Assembly: GCA_051874735.1 (NCBI GenBank)
Contig: JBJEGD010000041.1
Coordinates: 1-27,540, forward strand
Direction: 5' to 3'
Source of the DNA: Candidatus Bruticola sp.
GTDB lineage: Bacteria; Vulcanimicrobiota; Xenobia; Xenobiales; Xenobiaceae
DNA: 27,540 nt
This document shows positions 3,459 through 18,979 of the stretch, one piece after another (position 1 is the stretch's first letter; the number at the start of each line of letters is the position of its first letter). The notes beneath the pieces are model-generated. The model did no database searches. It was not told the origin of the DNA and was given only the letters and a program-made list of their open reading frames with translations. The position numbers were made by a program, and so were the translations under genes.

Positions 3459-5024
3459 TTACTGCTGCAGCCAACTAAGTTCGGAAGCTTGTTTAGCTAA
3501 AATAGTTCTGGTGGTATCAACTAATTGCCAAGCTTTCTCTGGTGAATCGGCTATGCATGTGCCAGAAAGGCGTCCATACTGGGAAAGTGCTCCCATCATG
3601 TGAAAAACGACTCCGCAGCAGGTCGCCGAATTATAATGCAATCCATACTCTGTAACGATATCGATTATATCGTTGGGGCAAAGTCCCTTAGCTTCAGGAG
3701 GGGCAATATTTGAAAAAGATACATAGTAAATTTTACGCCCAGATGGAGTCTTGAAAGAACCGCTGTCTGTAGAGTACTTTCCTCCAGTTAAAAAACTAGT
3801 GGCATTTAAAGGGTGAGTCGTGCCACCACGCCGCAAATTAATTTCTACAGCATAAAGCTCGTAATCACCGCGACTGTAAACGACACCATCAATCAGCCCT
3901 TTATTCTTGTTAGTTTTTCTTGGAATGGCAATAAAATCTATGGAAACTGGTCCCACATATCCTAAACGAACTAACTCACGGCCAATTTCTTTGCCTAAAT
4001 GATGCAGAGCCTGCACATATTCAGCTTTAGCTGGCAAAGAACAGCCTATATATTCTAGGCCGGAACGCCCTCCCAACTGCTGCTCATGTGTAGAATCTAC
4101 GTTAATTTCTCCCAAAGGATTTATAAAAATTTGAACCGTCGGCGAAGTCTTACCAGGAGCATCAATAAAAGCTTCGACTACACCTCCCTGATCAGCTAAA
4201 ACTTCTTTAAAAGCTTTGCAGGAGACCTCACCACAATTTCCATCAGAAAGATTTTCTAGATAATCAGCTATTTCTTCTTTAGAAGATATACTCCCCATAT
4301 CGGCTAACTTGACCAAGATATTGCCAATACCAGAAAAGCCCTCATTAAGTTTAATCACCACGCCCTCTAGATTAGGACATACCGAGCGCAAATCGATAAT
4401 CGCTTGAGCAGCTTCACGCATACTAAAAATTGAGCCCCTCCCTTTGGGATGAGCAATGTCCAACTTTTTAAATATATCTCTGGAGCCCGACTTGCCTCCC
4501 CAATATCGTAAATCACCTGAAGAGCCGTATATAGGAATGCCTAATTTTACGGCCAACTCATGCTCTAGATCGGTGTTATAGTAAACTTCCATATATGAAA
4601 GGGCAGGATTAGTAATTGCTCTTTTTATACGCTCAATAACGGCCGGACGTTCTAAAATTTTTTGAGTTAAAGGGATATCGCTGCGATCCATCAGCGAAAT
4701 TAAGTGGAGGCGTTCTCTGGCATGAGAGAAAGTAACTCCCGGAAGGAACTGTAAATAGTAAGAAATAACGTCGTCGGGAATACGCAAAGCACTCAAATAA
4801 ACTACTTGAGTTTTAGGCATACCCAACAAGGTGAGAAAAGAGAGCAACCGCTCTTCATAATGAACAGAGCCTTGGACTTTGGCCAACTCTAAAGGAGCCA
4901 AAGATATTGAAGGTAGCACAACTACAGTACGTTCACAGTTAGGATCGCTGCGAACACTCTGCCAAGCTGCAGGTAATCTTTTCTGCAAAGACTCAAAATC
5001 TATTTTCCAATTTGCTTCAGCCAT
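3459..5024 (-). CDS. ATP-grasp peptide/amine ligase, PGM1-related family
   Basis: N-terminal RTVVVLPSISL...HYEERLL, ATP-grasp elements VIKLNEGFSGIGN, VVEAFI, EINLRRGGTTHP, and C-terminal GVVFHMMGALSQYG resembling PGM1-related ligases. Confidence 0.75.
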   Translation of the reverse strand: MAEANWKIDFESLQKRLPAAWQSVRSDPNCERTVVVLPSISLAPLELAKVQGSVHYEERLLSFLTLLGMPKTQVVYLSALRIPDDVISYYLQFLPGVTFSHARERLHLISLMDRSDIPLTQKILERPAVIERIKRAITNPALSYMEVYYNTDLEHELAVKLGIPIYGSSGDLRYWGGKSGSRDIFKKLDIAHPKGRGSIFSMREAAQAIIDLRSVCPNLEGVVIKLNEGFSGIGNILVKLADMGSISSKEEIADYLENLSDGNCGEVSCKAFKEVLADQGGVVEAFIDAPGKTSPTVQIFINPLGEINVDSTHEQQLGGRSGLEYIGCSLPAKAEYVQALHHLGKEIGRELVRLGYVGPVSIDFIAIPRKTNKNKGLIDGVVYSRGDYELYAVEINLRRGGTTHPLNATSFLTGGKYSTDSGSFKTPSGRKIYYVSFSNIAPPEAKGLCPNDIIDIVTEYGLHYNSATCCGVVFHMMGALSQYGRLSGTCIADSPEKAWQLVDTTRTILAKQASELSWLQQ

Positions 5025-5170
5025 GCCTTACAATCAATGCCTCTCTCAATAAATCGACCTGCATTTCCTCACAGTCAGCTACAGCCCTTTTTTATAGCTG
5101 CAGCTTAATTGCACAAGAACTCTAGCTAAAGCAGGCCGCCACCATAACAGCAGAGAACTGTCGACAAGTT

Positions 5171-6349
5171 ATGTTGTGTTTTTTTGATGGTCACAATGAC
5201 TCTTTTGTAAAGTGTTATCCGCCCCGTCATCTGCGAAACGGAGCCTCTCCTCTGCAAGCCCATGCTTTTGTAAACGGAACTACTAACACTCACATAGACT
5301 TGCCGCGAGCCTTAAAAGCAGGCTACCTAGGAGCGCTCTGCGCTGTATTTATAGACCCACCCTTAGGCGATGACAGCACTTGTTTGCAAGCTCACAGCCG
5401 CGAGGTGCCTGAAGGCCGCCACCCTAATTTAGAAATTCCCATAGATCATCAGCTAGCCTTAAAGGCAACTTTAGAAGTCATGAGCCGCATTTTTCAAGAT
5501 GAACGTATCTCTGACGGTTTTAAAATTACGCGTTCTTATAAAGATTTGACTGATACAATTAGCCAACATAAGTTAGCTGTTGTTATCCATTTAGAGGGCT
5601 GCGAAGCTATAGATGTAAACCTTGACAGCTTGGAAGTGCTCTATCAAGCTGGGGTGCGTTCTTTAGGTATTTGCTGGAGTCGTCCTAATATCTTTGGAAC
5701 TGGCGTACCTTTCGCTTACAAGGTGCCCCCCGACACAGGTCCTGGACTAACTGGCGCAGGCTTATCTCTAGTAAAACGCTGCAATGAATTGGGTATACTG
5801 CTCGATGCGGCCCACTTAAATGCCCAAGGCTTCTACGATTTAGCGGCAGCGTCTAGAGGGCCTTTAGTAGTGTCGCACAGTAGCGCTTTCACTCTCTGTC
5901 CTGCTTCTAGGGCCCTTACTGATCATCAGCTGCAAACGGTAGCTGAGCATCGCGGCTTAGTCGGCGTTACTTTCCACGTTCCTGATCTCATTGGTCCGCG
6001 AGCTCAGGAAAGTCCTTACATTCCCCAGGCTGCTGAACTGTACAGCAATTTCAAAGAAGTAAAAAAATCTCTTCAATCTAGGCAGCTTCAGCCGCGCTCT
6101 TGCAGCGAATTAGAGGCAATAATCGCCCATATTGTCTATATAGGCAAACAGATCGGTTTCGATCATGTGGCTATAGGCTCTGATTTTGATGGATGTCTGA
6201 TACCTGATCAAATCAAAGATGTTTCCGACATACATTTAATATATGAAGGACTGCGCGCAGCCGGCCTAAATGAAAAAGAATTGGATAAGGTACTTTACAA
6301 AAATTGGCTGCGCGTTATACAAGAGAGTTGGGAAGTAAACAAAAATTAA
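5171..6349 (+). CDS. Membrane dipeptidase family (peptidase M19)
   Basis: FDGHND, HLEG, LDAAHLN, VSHS and GSDFDG metal/catalytic motifs; C-terminal NWLRV. Confidence 0.92.
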   Translation: MLCFFDGHNDSFVKCYPPRHLRNGASPLQAHAFVNGTTNTHIDLPRALKAGYLGALCAVFIDPPLGDDSTCLQAHSREVPEGRHPNLEIPIDHQLALKATLEVMSRIFQDERISDGFKITRSYKDLTDTISQHKLAVVIHLEGCEAIDVNLDSLEVLYQAGVRSLGICWSRPNIFGTGVPFAYKVPPDTGPGLTGAGLSLVKRCNELGILLDAAHLNAQGFYDLAAASRGPLVVSHSSAFTLCPASRALTDHQLQTVAEHRGLVGVTFHVPDLIGPRAQESPYIPQAAELYSNFKEVKKSLQSRQLQPRSCSELEAIIAHIVYIGKQIGFDHVAIGSDFDGCLIPDQIKDVSDIHLIYEGLRAAGLNEKELDKVLYKNWLRVIQESWEVNKN

Positions 6350-6463: not shown

Positions 6464-7708
6464 GTGCAGACTATGAACAGTATAAGTTCTTCTTCAATAA
6501 ATACGAATATTGTCCACGTAGCGCCTCCAGCTGCTACGGTCAGCAAGCACCCAGATGGTGAATCTGCCTCTGTTCAGAGAATATCTCGGGATAGTGCAGT
6601 TTTAGAGGTAATCTCTCCTCAGGATACTCTCTCTGTAACTTCATCATCCGCTCAAACGAAAGATCATACGCCTTGTACATCCACAGAGTCGAATGTAGAA
6701 GCCCCCACCAAAAAGCAAAACAAAAGCAAGAAAAGCCCTAAAAAATTGGTCAAAAAGGGGATCAGCTTATATAAAGAAGCTCGCCACTCTCCTTTAACCT
6801 TTGTAAAAGATCACGCTAAGAAAGGTGTGCCTGCGGCTATTGCTTTAGGAGTAGGCGCTGCAGTTCTGTGCGGAGAAGCTTTCGACGACGAGTGCATCAG
6901 CGACATAAAAGATCTGGCGGAGAATGCAGTCACCAAGGGTGGCGGCATAAATAAAAATCTGAAATTTTTTAACCAATTATCCGAATTTTCTGGTGTCAGC
7001 GCCGACATATGCTGCGGCACTGGAGGGGCGATACTGGCAGGACAAGGGCTGTACAAAACGGGAAACGGCGTAGTAAAAACTATTAAAGCCGTTAAAAAGA
7101 AAGATAGTCACGCTGTATTAAGCGGCTTGCGAACAACTGTGGCAGGCGTGCGCAAAACTTTAAACGGAGCGGTTGTGGGCACTATAAGTCTGGAAGGCAA
7201 GCCAGAAAAAGCGGCCAAATTTATCAAAAAAACCGTACTGCCTCCCCTGCGCAAAGCGGCTGCAGCCCTTAACATAGGTGTTGGTATAAAAAGCATCCAA
7301 AAGGGCATCAAAGCTAAAAGCAAAACTAAGGTTATAAATGGTGCTCTTGATCTGGCCTATGGTTCTGCAGTGGTCGTTTCTATTGCTGTAGGTGGCCCCG
7401 TAGCGGCAGCAGCTTGCACAGGTTTGTTAGCTGTCAAAACCGGCTGGTCATGGACAAAAAAAATCAGCCGCTGTGTTAGACGCGATCAGGAAATTCAAGA
7501 GCAGCGTCAGGCTGAACGCAGTCAAAGAGTTCAAAATCCGGAGTTGCCAGAAGAGTCAAATAAAGCGGGAAAAGTTCCCAACAACAGTAAGGCCCTCCCT
7601 GCTGAGCAAAGTAAAAAACTAGCTAAGGCCAACAAAGCTAAAAAAGCAGTGCTAAAATTTATTGCCGGTATTACATCCGACGAAAAATTACCCAAAAACA
7701 TCATTTAA
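6464..7708 (+). CDS. Hypothetical Lys-rich protein with Ser/Thr-rich N-terminus and Gly/Ala-rich hydrophobic helices
   Basis: 414-aa ORF filling the gap between dipeptidase and hemW; hydrophobic stretches GVPAAIALGVGAAVLCG and LAYGSAVVVSIAVGGPVAAAACTGLLAV. Start may be ATG 6473. Confidence 0.7.
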   Translation: MQTMNSISSSSINTNIVHVAPPAATVSKHPDGESASVQRISRDSAVLEVISPQDTLSVTSSSAQTKDHTPCTSTESNVEAPTKKQNKSKKSPKKLVKKGISLYKEARHSPLTFVKDHAKKGVPAAIALGVGAAVLCGEAFDDECISDIKDLAENAVTKGGGINKNLKFFNQLSEFSGVSADICCGTGGAILAGQGLYKTGNGVVKTIKAVKKKDSHAVLSGLRTTVAGVRKTLNGAVVGTISLEGKPEKAAKFIKKTVLPPLRKAAAALNIGVGIKSIQKGIKAKSKTKVINGALDLAYGSAVVVSIAVGGPVAAAACTGLLAVKTGWSWTKKISRCVRRDQEIQEQRQAERSQRVQNPELPEESNKAGKVPNNSKALPAEQSKKLAKANKAKKAVLKFIAGITSDEKLPKNII

Positions 7709-9052: not shown

Positions 9053-9631
9053 CTACTTGTAACGCCCACGCGCCCCATAATCGATATAGCGGCGACTATT
9101 CCCTCCCAAGTTGTTATCTTCGCGGACTTTGCTATCGGAAGAAGAATCGCCGTCCAATCCACTCAAAGCAGAGACGTTTTTCTCAGAATCGGGATGGTAA
9201 GAAACTTTAACTTCGTTGGGATAGCACAAAATAACTGAATCGGTAATTTTGGCTAAACAGCCATTAGTACAGTATAAAATTCCTGAAAGAAAATCTAGCA
9301 TGCTCCTTCTAAGCTCTTTACTAGTCTCCTGAAAGTTAATTATCACACACTTTTCTTGCTTAATAGCATTAGCAATAGCGACACACCAATTTGACTTATC
9401 GTTAGGTTCTATACAATATACATTTATTATGACTATTTCTAAATTTTTCGCTAACTTTGATACCTGTTCCGACATTGAATCTGCATTACCAGTAATAGCT
9501 CCGCGCACTTCAGTCGCCTTATTTTCTGATCCAACATCACTCACAGCAGCTTCTAAGGTTTCTTCTGTATCTTCAATATGTCCGCTACCTACAAAAGCAC
9601 GCACCAACCTACCCATAAAGCTGCTAGACAT
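9053..9631 (-). CDS. sepF: Cell division protein SepF
   Basis: VIINFQ...RRSMLDFLSGILYCTNG.LAKITDSVILCYPNEVKV matches the SepF core; start moved to ATG 9631 behind a GGAGGAG RBS, giving an amphipathic N-terminus MSSSFMGRLVRAFVG; directly downstream of yggS. Confidence 0.82.
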   Translation of the reverse strand: MSSSFMGRLVRAFVGSGHIEDTEETLEAAVSDVGSENKATEVRGAITGNADSMSEQVSKLAKNLEIVIINVYCIEPNDKSNWCVAIANAIKQEKCVIINFQETSKELRRSMLDFLSGILYCTNGCLAKITDSVILCYPNEVKVSYHPDSEKNVSALSGLDGDSSSDSKVREDNNLGGNSRRYIDYGARGRYK

Positions 9632-9650
9632 ATCACTCCTCCGCCAATTT

Positions 9651-10421
9651 TTAAACAGATTGGAAGCCGTTTTCTCTATTGCCAAAAATAGCTCTGCCTA
9701 CCCTTACAAAAGTAGCTCCTTCTTCAATAGCTATTCTGTAATTGCAGCTCATTCCCATTGACAGTTCCTGACCATCCCAAAAAGAATACCTGCGAGCTAA
9801 CACTTCCTGAAGCAGTTCCCGCATACAGCGAAAATAAGGACGACTGCCTTCAGAATCAGAAGTTGGCGGAGGAATAGTCATCAATCCCACCAAACGAAGA
9901 TGTTTAGGCTCATAAGACTTCAAATCGTCTAACAAAGCAAAAAGATTTTCAGGATCGACGCCACTCTTTGTAGCCTCCCGACCTAAACGGATCTGAATAA
10001 GTCCGGAAATAACACGGCCACGTTCTGCACATCGCCTATCAATGTGCTTAATAATATCAGCTGAATCTAGAGAGTGGATAACGGCTGCCAGATCCGCAGC
10101 AGCATTTGCCTTGTTTTTCTGGATATGGCCTATCAAATGCCAATTAACTGAGGGAAGCTGCTCCGCTTTAACTTTAGCTTCCTGTATATAGTTTTCTCCA
10201 AAATCACGCAGCCCTAAACGAGCGGCTAATTCCAAAACCTTGAGAGGCTTTGTTTTTGAGACCCCAATCAGCACAACTGAATTGGGGTCTCTGCCGCATG
10301 ATAGACAAGCACACCTAATAGAATCGCGCACTTGAACCAAACGGGCGCGCAGAATTTCGGGTGAGAAATCAGCTTCTGCCACAGAAATTTCTGAATTCAA
10401 GACTCCGAATCTGCCGTCCAT
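9651..10421 (-). CDS. yggS: PLP homeostasis protein YggS/PLPBP
   Basis: GVSKTKP (PLP Lys), FGENYIQE, WHLIGHIQKNK, LSMGMS, GATFVRVGRAIFG. Confidence 0.95.
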   Translation of the reverse strand: MDGRFGVLNSEISVAEADFSPEILRARLVQVRDSIRCACLSCGRDPNSVVLIGVSKTKPLKVLELAARLGLRDFGENYIQEAKVKAEQLPSVNWHLIGHIQKNKANAAADLAAVIHSLDSADIIKHIDRRCAERGRVISGLIQIRLGREATKSGVDPENLFALLDDLKSYEPKHLRLVGLMTIPPPTSDSEGSRPYFRCMRELLQEVLARRYSFWDGQELSMGMSCNYRIAIEEGATFVRVGRAIFGNRENGFQSV

Positions 10422-10425
10422 ACTT

Positions 10426-12633
10426 TTATAACCAGTTCATGATAGTATCGTTGTCGCTAATTTCCGAGTTATTCTGTTCTTGCAGATGGATTTCAGTATC
10501 CACAACAGGGAAATCTTGTACAGCAGTCTCTTCATGGAACTGCTCTTCGTCTTTAGAAATTAAACCACGGGAATAAAGAGCACCCATGGACTGGTTAAAG
10601 CTCTGCATACCTTCAACAGCACCCTGCTGCAAGTAAGCGGCTAAGCCGTCCAAATTATCGTTCAAAATCGAATCAGAGACGGCCATATCCACTACCAGAA
10701 CTTCAACTGCAGGTACACGTCCCTTATCATCTGATCGGGCAATGAGTTTCTGAGATATCACACCACGCAGACAACTGGCCAAGAGCAAGCGGAACTGCCT
10801 CTGAGTTTCTCCGGTAAAGGTTGACAACATACGGCGCACCGCCTGAACGGTATCAGGCATATTCATAGCTGCCACTACCAAATACCCTTTCTCAGCTGCA
10901 GTTGTAGCAGTCATCAAGGTATCTGCATCTTTGATGTCACTGATAACTAAAACATCGGGATCCTGACGCATAGCCATATTGATAGCGTCATTGAAACTTT
11001 GGGTATCAGTACCAACTTCACGCTGAGTAATTAAAGAATTGACCGTCTTGTGATAATACTCTATGGGGTCTTCTACCGTTACGATATGGCATTTACGGTT
11101 ATTGTTAATATAATCAACAATTGAGGCCATAGTAGTAGACTTACCAGAGCCTGTGGGACCAGTAATGATAATCAGACCGCTTTGGTACAGGGAAAGCTTC
11201 TTCAGAATTGGAGGCAACCCTAATACGTCGAAATCTAATACATCAGTGCGCTGCATATGGAAATTAGCACTTAAATTGCCTCTCTCCAAGAAAGCGTTGA
11301 CGATAAAACGGGTTCCATCAGAAGCGACATGAGCGAAGGAAACTTCATGCCCTTTCCTGACTTCTCTCCTCTGTTCACGAGTCATGGCAGGGTAGACCAA
11401 GGCCTTAGTATCATCTTGAGCCAACTTAGTATCGCCGACAGGAACAAGATCGCCACTCAAACGAACAGTAGGAGTATTACCTACCTGCAGGTGCAAATCT
11501 GAAGCCCGATGGCTGATCACAACCTGGAGAATATCATCGAGATCGTAGCCAAGATTTTCAGTAATAGCAGGGATAGCTTCATCTTCTTCAACAGGCTCAG
11601 CTACAGTCTTAGGAGCGACAGTACCGACAGAAGCAGCAGCACTAGCAGCCTGAGCTACAGTAGCAGCAATCTGAGGAGCAGCTTCCACTGCACTAGCTGC
11701 GGCCACAGTAACAGCTTCAGCACTCTTGCCGATATCGCGCACACGCTCATCAAGCTGTTCAACTAGACGCATGGCCATTTTAATAGCACTCAAATGCTTG
11801 TCTATTTCACTCTGAGATTCTTCAGCCTTAGCTATAGCATCTTCAAATTTCGGAGCATATCCTTCAAGCTTGCTCTGCAGAGCTTCTACGCCATCACTAA
11901 CAGCTTTAAGCTTATCCGCAGCCTGATCAGCGCCGTTCAAAGACTCACGTAAAGAATCGAGAGAAGATTTGAGCTCAGCGACTTCGAGCTTAAGTGAATC
12001 TATATTTTCCTCGACTTTCTCTTCGAGAGCAGTCGATTTCTTTTCAGTCTCACTGTTAAGCTCTTCTTTTAATAGATCAAAACTGGTTTTCAATTCGATC
12101 GATTCAGTCTTGATGCGCTCTTCCATAGCCTCAGCGGCGGCGAGCTGCTCTAATTTGTAGTTCTCAAAATCTTCATTTCTAGTAAAGGTTGAAGCTTGGC
12201 TAACCTCTTCTTTAAGGGCATCGAGACGCTCACCAAAAGAAACTTCTAAAGCAGCTAACTTCTCTGCTGCACCACTGCTGACAGCACCTAAATTATCTAA
12301 TTCAGTACGGACAGCCTCATTATTGGCAGCGAACTCATTGCTTTTAGCCTCCAAAGCCTCTTCAACGACCTTGAAACGCTCCCCCATTTCATCGAGAGAG
12401 CCTTGCACTTGAGCTAAGTCTTCAGCCGAAGCTCCTTCAGCTATTTCATCAAAGTCCGCTGAGAGACGTTCGAAGCGACCACTTAGTTTCAAAATTTCTT
12501 TACTAGTTGTATCGCCTACTAAGGAAATATCTTCCAGTCCGGCCTCTAACCTAGAGAGGCGGCCTTCTACTGACATATCAACATTGCTATCTAATAAATC
12601 GCTATCTGATTTGCTACGAGGTCTTCTGGCCAA
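10426..12633 (-). CDS. PilT/PilU-like ATPase domain (degenerate) fused to a long N-terminal coiled coil
   Basis: C-terminal half: ASDLHL, GPTGSGKST, TVEDPIEY, QREVGTDT, RQDPDV, GMQSFNQ. N-terminal ~300 aa is Glu/Leu/Lys/Ala heptad-like, followed by an Ala-rich linker. TTG start behind GGAAGGA RBS. Confidence 0.85.
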   Translation of the reverse strand: MARRPRSKSDSDLLDSNVDMSVEGRLSRLEAGLEDISLVGDTTSKEILKLSGRFERLSADFDEIAEGASAEDLAQVQGSLDEMGERFKVVEEALEAKSNEFAANNEAVRTELDNLGAVSSGAAEKLAALEVSFGERLDALKEEVSQASTFTRNEDFENYKLEQLAAAEAMEERIKTESIELKTSFDLLKEELNSETEKKSTALEEKVEENIDSLKLEVAELKSSLDSLRESLNGADQAADKLKAVSDGVEALQSKLEGYAPKFEDAIAKAEESQSEIDKHLSAIKMAMRLVEQLDERVRDIGKSAEAVTVAAASAVEAAPQIAATVAQAASAAASVGTVAPKTVAEPVEEDEAIPAITENLGYDLDDILQVVISHRASDLHLQVGNTPTVRLSGDLVPVGDTKLAQDDTKALVYPAMTREQRREVRKGHEVSFAHVASDGTRFIVNAFLERGNLSANFHMQRTDVLDFDVLGLPPILKKLSLYQSGLIIITGPTGSGKSTTMASIVDYINNNRKCHIVTVEDPIEYYHKTVNSLITQREVGTDTQSFNDAINMAMRQDPDVLVISDIKDADTLMTATTAAEKGYLVVAAMNMPDTVQAVRRMLSTFTGETQRQFRLLLASCLRGVISQKLIARSDDKGRVPAVEVLVVDMAVSDSILNDNLDGLAAYLQQGAVEGMQSFNQSMGALYSRGLISKDEEQFHEETAVQDFPVVDTEIHLQEQNNSEISDNDTIMNWL

Positions 12634-12760
12634 AGCTTAATTCCTTCCATCCCTTGAGATTGCAGGCGAAACGTTCTGTAAATTTCAACTCTTTACCTGC
12701 AGAATATACCCTGCTTTAAATGCATTAAAACTTGTCTTATACGGCAGTTAAAGTACAGTG

Positions 12761-14373: not shown

Positions 14374-15114
14374 TTATTGCAAAAGTTTGACCATCTGCAC
14401 CCGTTCATTCTGATATCCGGCTTCTCGATATAAACTAATAGCGCCGGTATTACAACAGGTTACAGTCAGTCCGATATGCGTCAGTCCTCGCTCTAAAGCA
14501 GAAGCTTCGACAGCTGCAATCAATCGATTGCCCACACCGCGACGACGATATTCAGGTTTTACCGCTAAATCGAAAATCCAGGCTTGCTTTTCTCCTGTTA
14601 AAAAATCGGTCACATCTAGATTAGCTGCGATATGGCCTACAATTTGACCAGCCTTATTTTTAGCCACAAAAACGGTAGCTATTTCCTTAGCTATCTGCCA
14701 GTCCAGATTTCGCATATCTTCTCGCCTAATACGCGCAGCCAAAATAATATTTCTGCGTCGTAAGGGCGACATTGAACTTCCCACCGAAGCTGCGGAAAGA
14801 TCTATGATTTCTGGTAAATCTGATCTCTCAGCTCGGAAAATTTTTATTTCTTCCAGTTCACCGCTTATTGATTCAGTTGTACTGCGCAAGCATTTGCGAT
14901 CGCCCGCCTTAGCCTGGCTTGCCTGAGATTTAAGAGGATAATTTGGAATAAATTCTTTTTTTTTCATTTTGTTTATATCCGACTGCAACCGCACCGCTAA
15001 ATTTTCTTGCTGAACGTTACTTTCAGCAAGAAAATTATAGACGCTTTCATGTGCGGAGGAGCAGACCTCGATCGAGGGATAGGGTAGCTGCTTATTCCCG
15101 AACTCCCTGCTCAC
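14374..15114 (-). CDS. GNAT family N-acetyltransferase with N-terminal extension
   Basis: WIFDLAVKPEYRRRGVGNRLI (acetyl-CoA motif A), LTV..CNTGAISLYREAGY. Start uncertain. Confidence 0.85.
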   Translation of the reverse strand: MSREFGNKQLPYPSIEVCSSAHESVYNFLAESNVQQENLAVRLQSDINKMKKKEFIPNYPLKSQASQAKAGDRKCLRSTTESISGELEEIKIFRAERSDLPEIIDLSAASVGSSMSPLRRRNIILAARIRREDMRNLDWQIAKEIATVFVAKNKAGQIVGHIAANLDVTDFLTGEKQAWIFDLAVKPEYRRRGVGNRLIAAVEASALERGLTHIGLTVTCCNTGAISLYREAGYQNERVQMVKLLQ

Positions 15115-15670
15115 GCTTTATAAATGCATAAGAATCGAACTCGAGATTGCGCCCATTCATTTCATCCTCAAAAGTATTGACTAAGAAATAAAGGCTGCCA
15201 AGCCAACTGCGAATGTCCTCAAAAGCTTTATCAGAAAGGGTTGACTGACCCTTACCGACATGTTCTTGGGCAACGGTCAAATCTTTATAAAGCATGCACC
15301 ACAAAACTGCTATATTGTGATGGTTCCTCTTTAATACTTCATCTTCATAATTGGACAAGGAACGTTGTCCGCCCCGAATTTCTCCCTCAACCGTTTGCCA
15401 AGCTTTAATAACTTTTTCATAGCGTTTATAAAAACGAGTGTCTTCGCTTCTAGAACTGCTGTTGCTTTCCACATTAACTTGCTCGTTAGTGACTTCAGAG
15501 TCATTAGTAGCTGTTTTTCCGGCAGATTTAGGATAAGCTGAAGCCTTAGGATAATACTGACCCGCTTTAGGATAATTCTGGGCCTGAGCTGAATCCGACA
15601 TAAAGCTCAGGGGCACGGCGCAGACACCGGCGAATAAAGCAAGAGCTACAAACTTGCGCATATTGTTCAT
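15092..15670 (-). CDS. Hypothetical secreted protein with three YPK repeats
   Basis: ATG 15670 behind AAGGAG; signal peptide MNNMRKFVALALFAGVCAVPLSFMSDSAQA (AxA); NYPKAGQYYPKASAYPKS. Confidence 0.72.
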   Translation of the reverse strand: MNNMRKFVALALFAGVCAVPLSFMSDSAQAQNYPKAGQYYPKASAYPKSAGKTATNDSEVTNEQVNVESNSSSRSEDTRFYKRYEKVIKAWQTVEGEIRGGQRSLSNYEDEVLKRNHHNIAVLWCMLYKDLTVAQEHVGKGQSTLSDKAFEDIRSWLGSLYFLVNTFEDEMNGRNLEFDSYAFIKREQGVRE

Positions 15671-16016
15671 AAAAGCGTACTCCTTCTCGGGGCGCATTCA
15701 TTTTCAACCTCAGCGGAAAGCGATTTGCAAGCAAGAGATCGGTTAAACCGATGGACTTAAATTTATCCGCAGGTCTTTTAGAATGGACAGCGCCGCCTCC
15801 ATACAGTTTTAAATTGTTCAGGACGGGAAATTCTTCAGCTTTCTCCGTTGGCCTCCCCAACCTGCTAAACAGAATAAGAGTTTGTATATTTGTGCACTTC
15901 AGGACAACCCCTATACAAACTAGATAGACATAGTTATAATTTTTTATCAAATAAAAGACTTATCAGTTGCTCTGCTTAACATGATACATCGAACAAAACT
16001 TACAATCTCCCTAAGT

Positions 16017-16418
16017 TTACTGCAGTAACACCTTGAGAGGCTTGAAATTTAAAGAACGGCGGCGCATTTCCGGCTCTAGTTTTTTAGCAATTCGATAATT
16101 AATACGTTCACATTGTTGAGCCTTTATATGTATATTTTTATCGGGCAAAAGATCTTTTTGGCTGGTCAAACTATGGCAAAACTCAACAGCTTCTACACTG
16201 AGGTTGTAAGTATCTAACAGTTTTTGGTTACTCATAGAACTTATTTTTTCAGGGGTCAGCTCTTTATATCTGTCTTTACCGCACTTAGTAAAACGCTCAA
16301 GGTCTTTTTCTAAATTCCCCTCATTACTCCATACGGGCAAATTAGAACCTATTATCAGCAAAATGACAGAAAATAAAGTTAAGAACAGGGATCTCTTCAA
16401 AAATTTTTTACTGTGCAT
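16017..16418 (-). CDS. Hypothetical secreted protein
   Basis: Basic N-terminus plus hydrophobic signal (SLFLTLFSVILLIIG); GGAG upstream; C-terminal EPEMRRRSLNF resembles the neighbouring gene's C-terminus. Confidence 0.65.
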   Translation of the reverse strand: MHSKKFLKRSLFLTLFSVILLIIGSNLPVWSNEGNLEKDLERFTKCGKDRYKELTPEKISSMSNQKLLDTYNLSVEAVEFCHSLTSQKDLLPDKNIHIKAQQCERINYRIAKKLEPEMRRRSLNFKPLKVLLQ

Positions 16419-16741: not shown

Positions 16742-18979
16742 ATGGGAATTAGTTCAATATTTAATGTAGGCGCCTATCAAGTTAATCGTCAAGCTGTTAA
16801 TCCTGCTCTCATCCGAAATATGGCTAACAGCGCCGGTAACATCAAAGTAGAGGGAAATGCTACCCCTGAGGCGTGGAGTGAGCTAGCCGATCGCGTCGAG
16901 GCTAACGACTGTATCTCGAGAGACGATCTTCGTCAAATACAAGATCTGGGGCGTGCCTGCTTTAAATATCATAGAGAGCTGCATACTGAGTACAAAGCCA
17001 GCGGTTACAAAGATCAAGCTATAAAAGCTGAATTGGCCGACGTACACGTATTTCGCTCTGGGAGCGACCAGATCCGCGAGTCTTTAGCTCTATCCCAGGC
17101 GCAATTAGCCGTTGATGCAGCAGCTGGAGCTTCTTTCGGGCCGACTTCGCTGGTAGTAAATTACGCGGCTTACTCTGACTTGCAAAAGAGTGCTCTAGAG
17201 CCACTAGTTGACAATATTCAAGGACTGCGCGACGGCACTAGCCCCAACCTGTATCAGGGCAACAGTATTGAATCTTTCCACGGAGCTGAAATTTGGAAAG
17301 AAATGAACAACATGCTCGACGACGCCGTCACCCAGGCTAAGGCGGGCAATCCTCAAGAGATCGACGCTCAGTACTACGAACTAACCAGCCCTGAAATTGT
17401 AGGCAAATTAGCCAAGGCTGCAGAAGCTGGCAACAAAGTGCGCGTCAATGTCGATCCGGGACGTCTGGTCGCCTTTGCCGGAGATCACGTGGTTATCGAT
17501 GAAGTGCCGGATAAGTTAAAAACTCTTATCCAGCTCTCTCAAGTAGACGGCGACGTCGCAGTTTCAACTTATCCTATCGAGAAACAGCTTAAGAACCCTA
17601 GCAACTTGATGCATCGCAAAGGACTGCGTGTAGGCGATAAATTCCTGCTTTCCGGTATGAATGCCAATGCCGGTAGCGGCGAAAATATTGATGCCGGTTA
17701 CACTATTGAAGGCCCGGCGGCTAAGCGTTTAGTTCAAAACTTCCAGCGCGACGTCGGTTACTCTATTGGTGCTTCTAACGAAGAAATTTACGGAGTGAAG
17801 CCTCTAGCTGGATTTATGACAGGTGATATAAATATGGGCACTCGCGGTCTTATATCCATGTTCGACTGCGTTAGCGGACCTTCGCCTGCTGGCACAGAGA
17901 TGCCCAAAGCTGCAAACGCTCAACAACTATCCGATATTGCTGAATCAATGGGACAAAATTTAGCAGACTACACAGACTGCTCTATGGAAGAGATTGATCA
18001 GCGGATTAAAAACGGCCAAGATATACCTCTGTCTATTAAAGGCAAGGAAGCTTTTTTAGGTGTTGTCCAACGTGCTCTCGATATAACCCGCTCTCCTGAA
18101 AATGTAGCCAGGCTGCAAGATATTGATATCCCTAGCGGTGATCCTAAGGGGACTACAGCGATAGCTTTAGCAGATCTTCCTAACGATCGACGCGCGGCCA
18201 TGATCCAAACGATTCAAGACGCCGAAGAGTTTATATATGTGCCGGCCTTTGTCATGACCAAAAGCATCGCTTCAGTACTAGTAGCTAAACGCGACGAAAT
18301 GAAAGCTCAAGGTAAAGACATTGATATACGTGTTGTTGCCGACTCCGGAATTTACCCTGACGGCGGAACTCCTAACGAAGGCGGCATCAAATACTTAGAA
18401 GATCATGGCATCGACGTTCACTGGACCTTGCTTCCTCGTAGTTCCAGCCATGACAGAAAAGTTCATGCTAAAGAAATTCTCACCGACAAAGGGGAGTTTT
18501 TTGGCAGCACGAATTTCTCCAACAAAGGTATGGGAGTTAACTGGGAGCATTCCGGATACGTTAAATTCAATCCCGACGACGAAGCTTCTATTTCTCAGCG
18601 CGAAAGTGCCAAAGCTCACTTCCTTAACTTGTGGGACAACGAATCGTTTGGTCTCAACACAAAAGAAACGGCGGCTCAACGTAAAGAAAGAGCTAAGGGA
18701 CAGATCGATTACGAAGTTCAGGTGGAGGAAGCCCGCAGCGGCGTAGTTCGTGAGACGATACGTGGCATCCAAAATTTTGAGAAGGCCAGTGCTGAGTTCG
18801 TCAGTAATTTAATTGCTTCCGATCCTCAGGCTAACGCCCGTATCGACGAATTGGTAATGCAAGGTTACGATCAAGGCTCGGCAACGCTTATGGCTGCCAA
18901 AGAAAAAATGGGTGATGAAGCCTTCTATAGTGCTTTGCATAGTCTACCAGCTTACGAGAGTCTCCAGCAGATAAAATAA
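16742..18979 (+). CDS. Phospholipase D superfamily protein with two HKD-type motifs and N-terminal extension
   Basis: HRKGLRVGDKFLLSGMN (variant) and HAKEILTDKGEFFGSTN (canonical HxKxxxxD...GSxN); strong RBS AGGAGG. Confidence 0.85.
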   Translation: MGISSIFNVGAYQVNRQAVNPALIRNMANSAGNIKVEGNATPEAWSELADRVEANDCISRDDLRQIQDLGRACFKYHRELHTEYKASGYKDQAIKAELADVHVFRSGSDQIRESLALSQAQLAVDAAAGASFGPTSLVVNYAAYSDLQKSALEPLVDNIQGLRDGTSPNLYQGNSIESFHGAEIWKEMNNMLDDAVTQAKAGNPQEIDAQYYELTSPEIVGKLAKAAEAGNKVRVNVDPGRLVAFAGDHVVIDEVPDKLKTLIQLSQVDGDVAVSTYPIEKQLKNPSNLMHRKGLRVGDKFLLSGMNANAGSGENIDAGYTIEGPAAKRLVQNFQRDVGYSIGASNEEIYGVKPLAGFMTGDINMGTRGLISMFDCVSGPSPAGTEMPKAANAQQLSDIAESMGQNLADYTDCSMEEIDQRIKNGQDIPLSIKGKEAFLGVVQRALDITRSPENVARLQDIDIPSGDPKGTTAIALADLPNDRRAAMIQTIQDAEEFIYVPAFVMTKSIASVLVAKRDEMKAQGKDIDIRVVADSGIYPDGGTPNEGGIKYLEDHGIDVHWTLLPRSSSHDRKVHAKEILTDKGEFFGSTNFSNKGMGVNWEHSGYVKFNPDDEASISQRESAKAHFLNLWDNESFGLNTKETAAQRKERAKGQIDYEVQVEEARSGVVRETIRGIQNFEKASAEFVSNLIASDPQANARIDELVMQGYDQGSATLMAAKEKMGDEAFYSALHSLPAYESLQQIK

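Follow-up and report, generated by a model that had tools for sequence, protein, structure and literature searches.

A stretch of 27,540 nucleotides from Candidatus Bruticola sp. (assembly GCA_051874735.1, contig JBJEGD010000041.1, forward strand; hereafter the window) carries a gene for a 735-residue protein in which a coiled coil is fused to a core of the PilT family of type IV pilus ATPases (coiled-coil PilT, ccPilT; Table 1). Comparisons of the sequence with its relatives indicate that ccPilT is a selected pseudo-ATPase, rather than a product of decay or an artefact, and that it is probably a non-motor structural part. From the same comparisons we infer that hydrolysis has been lost, that ATP is still bound, that rings form and that the protein is linked to pili. 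An initial annotation, made from the letters of the window, had described a coiled-coil–PilT fusion with eroded catalytic residues and proposed a hydrolysis-poor scaffold repurposed from the pilus motor; its observation is confirmed and its interpretation is partly supported.

Active site and domain architecture

The assignment of ccPilT to the PilT family is solid. Residues 365–696 match positions 2–333 of the 343 in the TIGR01420 model at 357.5 bits, compared with a curated cut-off of 319.1 (359.7 bits for the same protein in a whole-genome scan). HMMER alignments with the solved PilTs 5fl3, 5zfq and 2ewv run end to end (E = 1e-66 to 8e-73), and a Foldseek search with the core of an AlphaFold2 (AF2) model retrieves PilU and PilT chains at target-normalised template-modelling (TM) scores of 0.74–0.82, including PilU 9n32 and PilT4 6ojy (E = 1e-34, TM 0.75–0.82).

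All motifs read in the initial annotation lie where it placed them, and alignment to solved PilTs bears them out: Walker A and the Asp box are unchanged, Asp stands in for the catalytic Glu, and the His box and both Arg fingers are replaced. GEMRD of the solved PilTs corresponds to SDIKD, TGHLV..TLHT to KGYLVVAAMN and RFR to RFI, and Arg is changed to His at residue 459; positions 444, 459, 566, 582, 584 and 591 are thus I, H, D, K, Y and N in place of R, R, E, T, H and H. According to the available text of PMC5424180, Walker A and B, the catalytic Glu, two Arg fingers lying 15 residues apart and the Asp-box Glu are completely conserved in PilT-like ATPases, and the His-box His is highly conserved; the Asp-box Glu is a Mg ligand, the gamma-phosphate is touched by one Arg finger and by the second His-box His, and the His-box Thr makes an inter-chain contact. 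In the same text, the GmPilB residues are R271/R286, E395 and T411/H413/H420 (PMC5424180). Their equivalents by spacing in ccPilT are I444/H459, with the same 15-residue interval, D566 and K582/Y584/N591, suggesting that the residues for nucleotide and Mg binding are all kept and that those for ATP hydrolysis and for coupling hydrolysis to domain closure are all replaced. The loss is systematic, as had been proposed, in being confined to hydrolysis and coupling residues: G/K/S of Walker A and E..E of the Asp box do not vary among the 22 aligned sequences. Among the 12 loci of the degenerate clade described below, position 566 is Asp in 11 and Glu in one, the preceding Gly is lost in 11, position 444 varies between I, V, L and M, and the His box always reads K-G-Y/F-L-V-x-x-x-M/L-N.

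An AIRNLIRE helix near the C terminus is a feature of PilT sensu stricto. The initial annotation correctly read AVSDSILND at this site, where canonical PilTs of the same genome read AVRNLIREGK, but counted it as part of the erosion; the departure is largely subfamily-wide, as canonical long-form members of the subfamily read PTISSLILEGK and also lack AIRNLIRE.

The protein consists of a basic N-terminal stub, an acidic coiled coil of ~300 residues, an Ala-rich linker, a PilT/PilU fold and an acidic tail. The AF2 model, built from a 22-sequence alignment, has a mean predicted local distance difference test score (pLDDT) of 66.8, with the core mostly at 70–90. It contains helices at residues 22–65, 70–147 and 154–317 and a complete two-domain PilT core, and is disordered in the linker (317–350) and the tail. 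Heptad periodicity reaches z = 5–8.6 at residues 85–140 and 197–336, compared with -1.0 to 1.2 inside the PilT part; net charge is -56. The annotated coiled coil, Ala-rich linker and acidic tail ending in TIMNWL are all recovered by these analyses. The coiled coil includes conserved turn motifs, EGASAEDL (~residues 66–73) and ASTF..EDFENY (~residues 148–158), and a conserved junction helix, AIKMAMRLVEQLDERV, which reads A-M-R-L-V-E-Q-L-D-E within the family; linker length and sequence differ between orthologues.

The N-terminal 355 residues have no relatives outside the family. A search against 1.84 billion representatives gave seven matches at E <= 0.001, five to family members or fragments and the other two, both weak, to giant coiled-coil proteins; a protein-atlas search with the same residues reached a best score of 0.79, under the meaningful level, and Pfam returned coiled-coil families below threshold only (DUF948, Uso1 and others) for this part. 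PADLOC produced only weak P-loop and coiled-coil matches (best 1.6e-06, mad8) and no link to a defence system. A complex prediction with two copies of residues 356–735 scored 0.00; run without controls, it has no bearing either way.

Table 1. Positions in the window of the ccPilT gene, its parts and the adjoining genes (aa, residues of ccPilT).
Feature	Position	Strand	Remarks
ccPilT, complete coding sequence	10426..12633	-	735 aa; TTG start; stop codon 10426-10428
Shine-Dalgarno-like GGAAGGA	12642..12648	-	8 nt 5' of the TTG
N-terminal basic stub, aa 1-21	12571..12633	-	MARRPRSKSDSD...; predicted disordered (alignment, AF2)
Acidic coiled-coil region, aa 22-317	11683..12570	-	AF2 helices, heptad periodicity, alignment
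Ala/Pro-rich flexible linker, aa 318-362	11548..11682	-	pLDDT <50 at 317-350; 31% Ala
PilT N-terminal (N2) domain, aa 363-465	11239..11547	-	both Arg-finger positions replaced
RFIVN (I444)	11296-11310	-	Arg finger replaced
FH (H459)	11257-11262	-	second Arg finger replaced; HMQR, R in this column in solved PilTs
PilT C-terminal ATPase domain, aa 466-700	10534..11238	-	Walker A and Asp box intact, Walker B and His box changed
Walker A GPTGSGKST	11134-11160	-	intact
Asp box TVEDPIEY	11056-11079	-	intact
Walker B DPDVLVISDIKD	10927-10962	-	catalytic Glu replaced by Asp
His box KGYLVVAAMN	10861-10890	-	replaced
AIRNLIRE-equivalent helix	10657-10686	-	AVSDSILND at about 10657-10683
Acidic tail, aa 701-735	10429..10533	-	ends D-T-I-M-N-W-L (10429-10449), the subfamily-wide C-terminal motif
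yggS-type gene, pyridoxal-phosphate-binding protein	9651..10421	-	begins 4 nt past the ccPilT stop
sepF, cell-division gene	9053..9685	-	overlaps the yggS end; Pfam SepF 3.8e-14

Distribution, origin and selection

ccPilT is the local orthologue of a lineage-wide PilT-like subfamily. Its defining features are a coiled-coil stalk at the N terminus, a flexible linker, the PilT core and, shared by the whole group, the C-terminal motif x-L-M-N/S-W-L (WL tail). Within the family, the MARKPRS start, the EGASAEDL turn and the junction helix are also shared. Of the 201 genomes searched in the phylum group, which include two unpublished ones (G127 and G177) on which no claim rests, only those of the window's family gave full-length matches. 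The motif table made from this search holds 39 distinct open reading frames (ORFs); L008 and L037 were dropped by a text filter for Walker A plus the Asp box, and the own-genome C3 ORF of L008, added back later, is canonical at the Arg, Glu and His positions.

The erosion is common to all 12 genomes of the window's genus (g1; 10 long forms, the window's included) and one sister genus (g3; two), and the frame is intact in each of them. All 19 other WL-tail ORFs tabulated, from g2, g4, g5 and more distant families, have canonical motifs of the types RFRVN, FR, GE(M/I)R(D/S) and TGHL(V/I)..TLHT, conservative variants counted. Retention of GE and the His box by orthologues, which the initial annotation would have taken as a sign of lineage-specific decay, therefore holds for the distant orthologues and does not hold for the two-genus clade.

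Protein databases give the same picture. The same substitutions occur in 21 protein clusters from independent assemblies, and the GE context is missing from 23 of 37 WL-tail proteins. A length-matched search yielded 19 clusters of 726–744 residues with a PilT-region identity of 66–96% and the same degenerate motifs (the window's own P0002 among them), one of which is named 'MAG: PilT/PilU family type 4a pilus ATPase [Candidatus Bruticola sp.]', and two full-length relatives at 52–55% with canonical motifs. Candidatus Bruticola belongs to the class Xenobia of Vulcanimicrobiota. A profile search added 14 canonical full-length clusters and two partly eroded ones (P0150 and P0151), and the named sources of these relatives are all Xenobia or Eremiobacterota. 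Matches of ~725 residues at 37–40% identity were rejected as orthologues, being double PilTs.

The two partly eroded clusters are long WL-tail forms: P0150 (746 residues) reads ISDLPD and has an intact His box and Arg, and P0151 (781 residues) reads VSELRD and has Ser in place of the second His-box His. Their partial and differing erosion suggests repeated relaxation of catalysis in the WL-tail subfamily. Weakened Walker A and Asp-box motifs (GKSA and VEEPIEY) are found in L020, P0018 and P0019, members of the degenerate clade. In two genomes of one distant family (G007 and G020; L029 and L034), a long form of ~890–1030 residues is immediately followed, as a tandem pair, by a WL/WI-tail PilT of 416–417 residues, and both are canonical.

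Coiled-coil PilTs with fully canonical motifs are present in sister genera and distant lineages, so the coiled-coil fusion is much older than the erosion. The same architecture is found on dozens of independent contigs (NCBI, ENA, JGI and Logan) of up to 254 kb, excluding the possibility, raised in the initial annotation, that the fusion is an assembly artefact.

The translation start is conserved as well. In the window the TTG lies immediately 3' of an in-frame TAA and opens a frame of 735 codons; with GGAAGGA 8 nt ahead of it, the intact frame and good ribosome-binding site annotated earlier are upheld. The start codon (12631-12633 in the window) is never ATG: it is TTG in 12/12 loci of g1 and g3, and GTG in four of the five g2, g4 and g5 loci bearing the ARKPR motif. 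The (M)ARKPRS start is kept as TTG or GTG in 16 of the 18 orthologous loci examined, the exceptions being L022 (VARMSRPR, with a GTG-coded Val) and L026, which has no such motif. A promoter and terminator scan gave counts not above those in shuffled sequence. A sequencing-run search found one DNA run with 0.09 of the words and no RNA run among those listed, and has no bearing on expression or habitat.

The degenerate forms constitute one clade in two trees, with a Shimodaira–Hasegawa-like approximate likelihood ratio test (SH-aLRT) support of 100. The stem of this clade is 0.67 and 0.57 substitutions per site long in the respective trees, compared with 0.08–0.39 for sister stems, and its inner branches are short. 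The erosion arose on this single long stem branch, in the ancestor shared by g1 and g3. Fixed differences set 11 degenerate sequences apart from 11 canonical ones in 24 of the 380 columns of core and tail, and are concentrated in the Walker B segment (560–568), in the His-box segment (582–594) and at positions 600–602.

After this change, purifying selection has been strong. The ratio of non-synonymous to synonymous substitution rates (omega) of the PilT part is 0.004–0.017 in all 15 pairs of six g1 genomes, at a synonymous divergence (dS) of 0.33–1.78, these values being approximate because many pairs are near saturation (dS ~1). In the PilT part of the L011–L012 pair (dS 0.33), there are 62 synonymous codon differences and one non-synonymous difference. 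Omega is 0.017–0.098 for the coiled coil in g1 genomes and 0.000–0.009 for a control, a canonical 363-residue PilT of the same six genomes. These values and the 12 intact frames support the earlier statement that the gene is not decaying. Two marks of a pseudoenzyme are present in ccPilT: clear homology to an enzyme family with loss of residues required for catalysis, and purifying selection after that loss. The ratio of N-domain to C-domain divergence, estimated from identities, is ~0.7–0.8 within the degenerate clade compared with 2.0–4.5 in canonical pairs; constraint has thus moved from the catalytic C-domain to the N-domain.

Gene context and PilT paralogues of the genome

As yggS begins 4 nt past the ccPilT stop, the two genes are probably co-transcribed. 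Beyond sepF lies a radical-SAM (HemW-like) gene, and hutH lies upstream of ccPilT. At the family level, yggS adjoins ccPilT in 17/17 loci, and sepF is present, with the order ccPilT–yggS–sepF kept, in 15 of them. The arrangement is seen again in five more distant loci (L026, L033, L036 and L037 among them), and the locus is conserved across Xenobia/Vulcanimicrobiota, where most lineages have canonical catalytic motifs. Elsewhere in the window, positions 16742-18979 (+) encode a 745-residue protein whose sole Pfam match is a PLD-like domain (residues 487–603), and ORFs of 133–414 residues at 6464-7708 (+), 15092-15697 (-) and 16017-16418 (-) match no Pfam family at E <= 1e-5.

The genome, a 2.47-Mb draft in 42 contigs, has 13 PilT-family loci, nine of them above the curated cut-off and two of them PilB/GspE-like ATPases, together with five PilC-like genes, one PilM and two secretins. 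This is an unusually large investment in pilus motors; same-family relatives have 9–19 PilT-like matches per genome. Canonical pilT genes, whose presence elsewhere in the genome the initial annotation had left to be checked, are represented by eight paralogues that are canonical at the Arg, Glu and His positions. Two further paralogues are degenerate.

One of these forms what appears from its motifs to be a tandem active/dead PilT pair: in the window's genome (G000), a canonical PilT at C31:55003-56121 is directly followed by a degenerate PilT-like gene at 56236-57267 (L040:3004-4122 and 4231-5298), which reads CGPKQSGKSN and SKLEG, has no His box and scores 284.7 bits with TIGR01420, below the cut-off. 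The other is a short WL-tail PilT of 407 residues, encoded downstream of rpoZ at C18:38919-40139 (-) (L039:5917-7140) and ending in DTPLMSWL. Erosion has reached its P-loop (TGLPRSGKIN), Asp box (LEKPIQF) and His box, and this form is degenerate in 30/30 loci in three families of the order. The loss is thus far older than that in ccPilT, which marks this form as an ancient pseudo-ATPase, and both WL-tail members in the window's genome would be without a working active site.

Possible roles and comparison with known systems

In the account that we moderately favour, ccPilT would be a non-hydrolysing, nucleotide-binding PilT ring on a stalk that serves type IV pili as a structural adaptor or regulator. 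The ancestor shared by the two small-genome genera (1.9–3.3 Mb) had its hydrolysis and coupling residues replaced on one long branch: the catalytic Glu and the Gly next to it, the two Arg fingers of the N-domain, and Thr-x-His...His in the His box. The P-loop, Asp-box glutamates, fold, stalk and WL tail were kept and have been under strong purifying selection since. The protein would work without ATP turnover of its own, as a PilT-shaped ring borne on a long acidic stalk at the pilus base, and motor work would be supplied by the eight catalytically intact paralogues. This account relies on analogy with ATPase-dead PilT of Vibrio cholerae: in the accessible text of 10.1101/634048, near-normal retraction is still possible in pilT K136A and E204A mutants, dependent on PilU.

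Several points weigh against an adaptor or regulator of pili. No pilus gene adjoins ccPilT, which lies in an apparent operon with yggS and sepF. Residual hydrolysis may be possible, since Asp566 is still a carboxylate and one orthologue (L017/P0015) has Glu there. The AIRNLIRE-equivalent helix and the HADQPTEFR.G.EGH segment of the tail, both conserved among canonical long forms, vary in the degenerate clade, and this relaxation may reflect loss, not retention, of coupling to the pilus platform. As for the evolutionary evidence, both trees come from quick IQ-TREE runs that included neither bootstrap nor approximately unbiased test, and dS is at least 1 for many pairs, making absolute omega rough, although the unsaturated pairs (dS 0.33–0.7) agree.

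The main variant of the adaptor reading is a retraction brake, in which a dead ring in a fixed, ATP-bound-like state would compete with active PilTs for the pilus base and stabilise extended pili for adhesion. V. cholerae pilT E204A, predicted to bind ATP without hydrolysing it, is hyperpiliated with far fewer retraction events (accessible text of 10.1101/634048), and ccPilT likewise keeps the P-loop and loses the catalytic Glu; the genomes of the clade are small, and Candidatus Bruticola is named in gut-microbiome papers, as far as their accessible text goes. We nevertheless regard so specific a role as unlikely: with both Arg fingers lost, ATP may be unable to induce the closed state, the degenerate clade has relaxed conservation of the AIRNLIRE-equivalent helix, and docking to the pilus base is without direct evidence. 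It is very unlikely that ccPilT is still an ATPase motor with a non-canonical active site, in which Asp566 would act as the base and the contacts lost with the Arg and His residues would be made by others. The acidic residue at position 566 in every locus of the clade, the intact Walker A, Asp box and Walker B Asp, and the very strong constraint on the PilT domain would suit such a motor, but six residues have been lost jointly, including the Arg fingers and the gamma-phosphate His, that are completely or highly conserved in PilT-like ATPases (available text of PMC5424180). Moreover, constraint has shifted off the C-domain, and Walker A and the Asp box are themselves weakened in the three sequences with GKSA and VEEPIEY.

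A role outside pili, with stalk and ring forming a cytoskeletal, polar or division-site scaffold together with SepF and YggS, seems quite unlikely. It would explain the tight linkage to yggS and sepF in an order kept across the lineage, and it is consistent with the ~300-residue coiled coil and with an N-terminal region that has no relatives outside the family. Yet the canonical subfamily members look like working PilT motors, and domain scans detected no DivIVA or other division-protein domain in ccPilT. Also, to our knowledge, pilT adjoining yggS is a common arrangement in unrelated bacteria and has no known functional link. Decay of the gene, or a chimera made in assembly, can for practical purposes be dismissed. 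Many catalytic residues are indeed lost and the genome is a draft in 42 contigs, but such an origin is refuted by the intact frames, the purifying selection (for example, in the L011–L012 pair), the recurrence of the architecture on independent contigs, and the conserved start codon and synteny.

A broader conjecture, to which we give a low probability, is that the WL-tail subfamily is a PilT-derived structural system and not a set of pilus motors. The long forms and the ancient short forms would both dock to one partner via the WL peptide and form a nucleotide-gated, non-hydrolysing scaffold that places pilus machines or the SepF/FtsZ apparatus, and the small-genome, possibly gut-associated clade would have dispensed with ATP hydrolysis. 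If true, a secretion-ATPase ring would here have become a cytoskeleton-like element, the first such case from nature.

No molecular motors stronger than PilT-family rings are known, and these rings are normally viewed only as ATPases. All sources name ccPilT 'PilT/PilU family type 4a pilus ATPase', and a literature search found no paper joining PilT with pseudo-ATPases, with inactive or degenerate paralogues, or with coiled-coil extensions. A paper on TfpC, returned by the search for PilT and coiled coils, was set aside as unrelated, and a search of PMC11484240, on Xenobia/Eremiobacterota, for pilus terms gave no PilT and one unrelated mention of pili. ccPilT is thus a naturally fixed pseudo-PilT in a previously undescribed coiled-coil/WL-tail subfamily, from a barely studied phylum that gives an unusual share of small genomes to PilT paralogues.

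Tandem PilT–PilT fusions (~725 residues), which are widespread in other phyla and make up most of the length-matched matches, resemble ccPilT in length and in belonging to the PilT family, but they have two PilT cores with two Walker A and GE motifs, lack the coiled coil and WL tail, and are not orthologues. Two Walker A motifs, marking double PilTs, are present in 98 of 121 proteins, nearly all of which come from the 120 listed length-matched matches; source names of fusions of ~720–750 residues (e.g., P0021–P0025) include Victivallales, Armatimonadetes, Polyangiales and Bradymonadia. The short C18 pseudo-PilT shares with ccPilT the WL-tail clade (SH-aLRT 97), a PLMSWL-type end and degenerate catalysis, but has no coiled coil and a broken P-loop (G-x-P-R-x-G-K-I/F-N).

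With the solved PilTs (Thermus thermophilus PilT2 5fl3, Geobacter sulfurreducens/metallireducens PilT4 5zfq/6ojx, Aquifex aeolicus 2ewv and Pseudomonas aeruginosa 3jvu), ccPilT shares the two-domain fold, Walker A, the Asp box and the Walker B Asp, at 33–38% identity to solved PilT/PilU chains over ~330–340 aligned columns (Foldseek). Placement of the gene beside yggS is a further feature common to ccPilT and PilT retraction ATPases. Unlike the solved proteins, ccPilT is twice as long, with 360 residues of stalk and linker and a 35-residue tail, and it lacks the catalytic Glu, both Arg fingers, the Thr/His/His of the His box and AIRNLIRE.

The engineered V. cholerae pilT K136A and E204A are a parallel in function, each providing a non-hydrolysing PilT ring with a structural role while another motor works (accessible text of 10.1101/634048 and PMC6762196). 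Unlike those laboratory point mutations, the loss in ccPilT is natural, involves multiple residues, is fixed in two genera and is accompanied by a stalk, and dependence on another motor is proposed by analogy only. A naturally fixed, hydrolysis-disabled PilT would give evolutionary support to the laboratory finding that a structural role of PilT is separable from its ATPase. The canonical orthologues of ccPilT (e.g., L021–L027, P0076, P0121 and P0125–P0137) have the same architecture, MARKPRS stub, EGASAEDL turn, junction helix, WL tail and locus but, unlike the window's protein, keep RFRVN, FRMLR, VGEMRD and TGHLVLSTLHT; they thereby offer matched pairs of active and inactive orthologues, with cores 52–55% identical, for working out that structural role.

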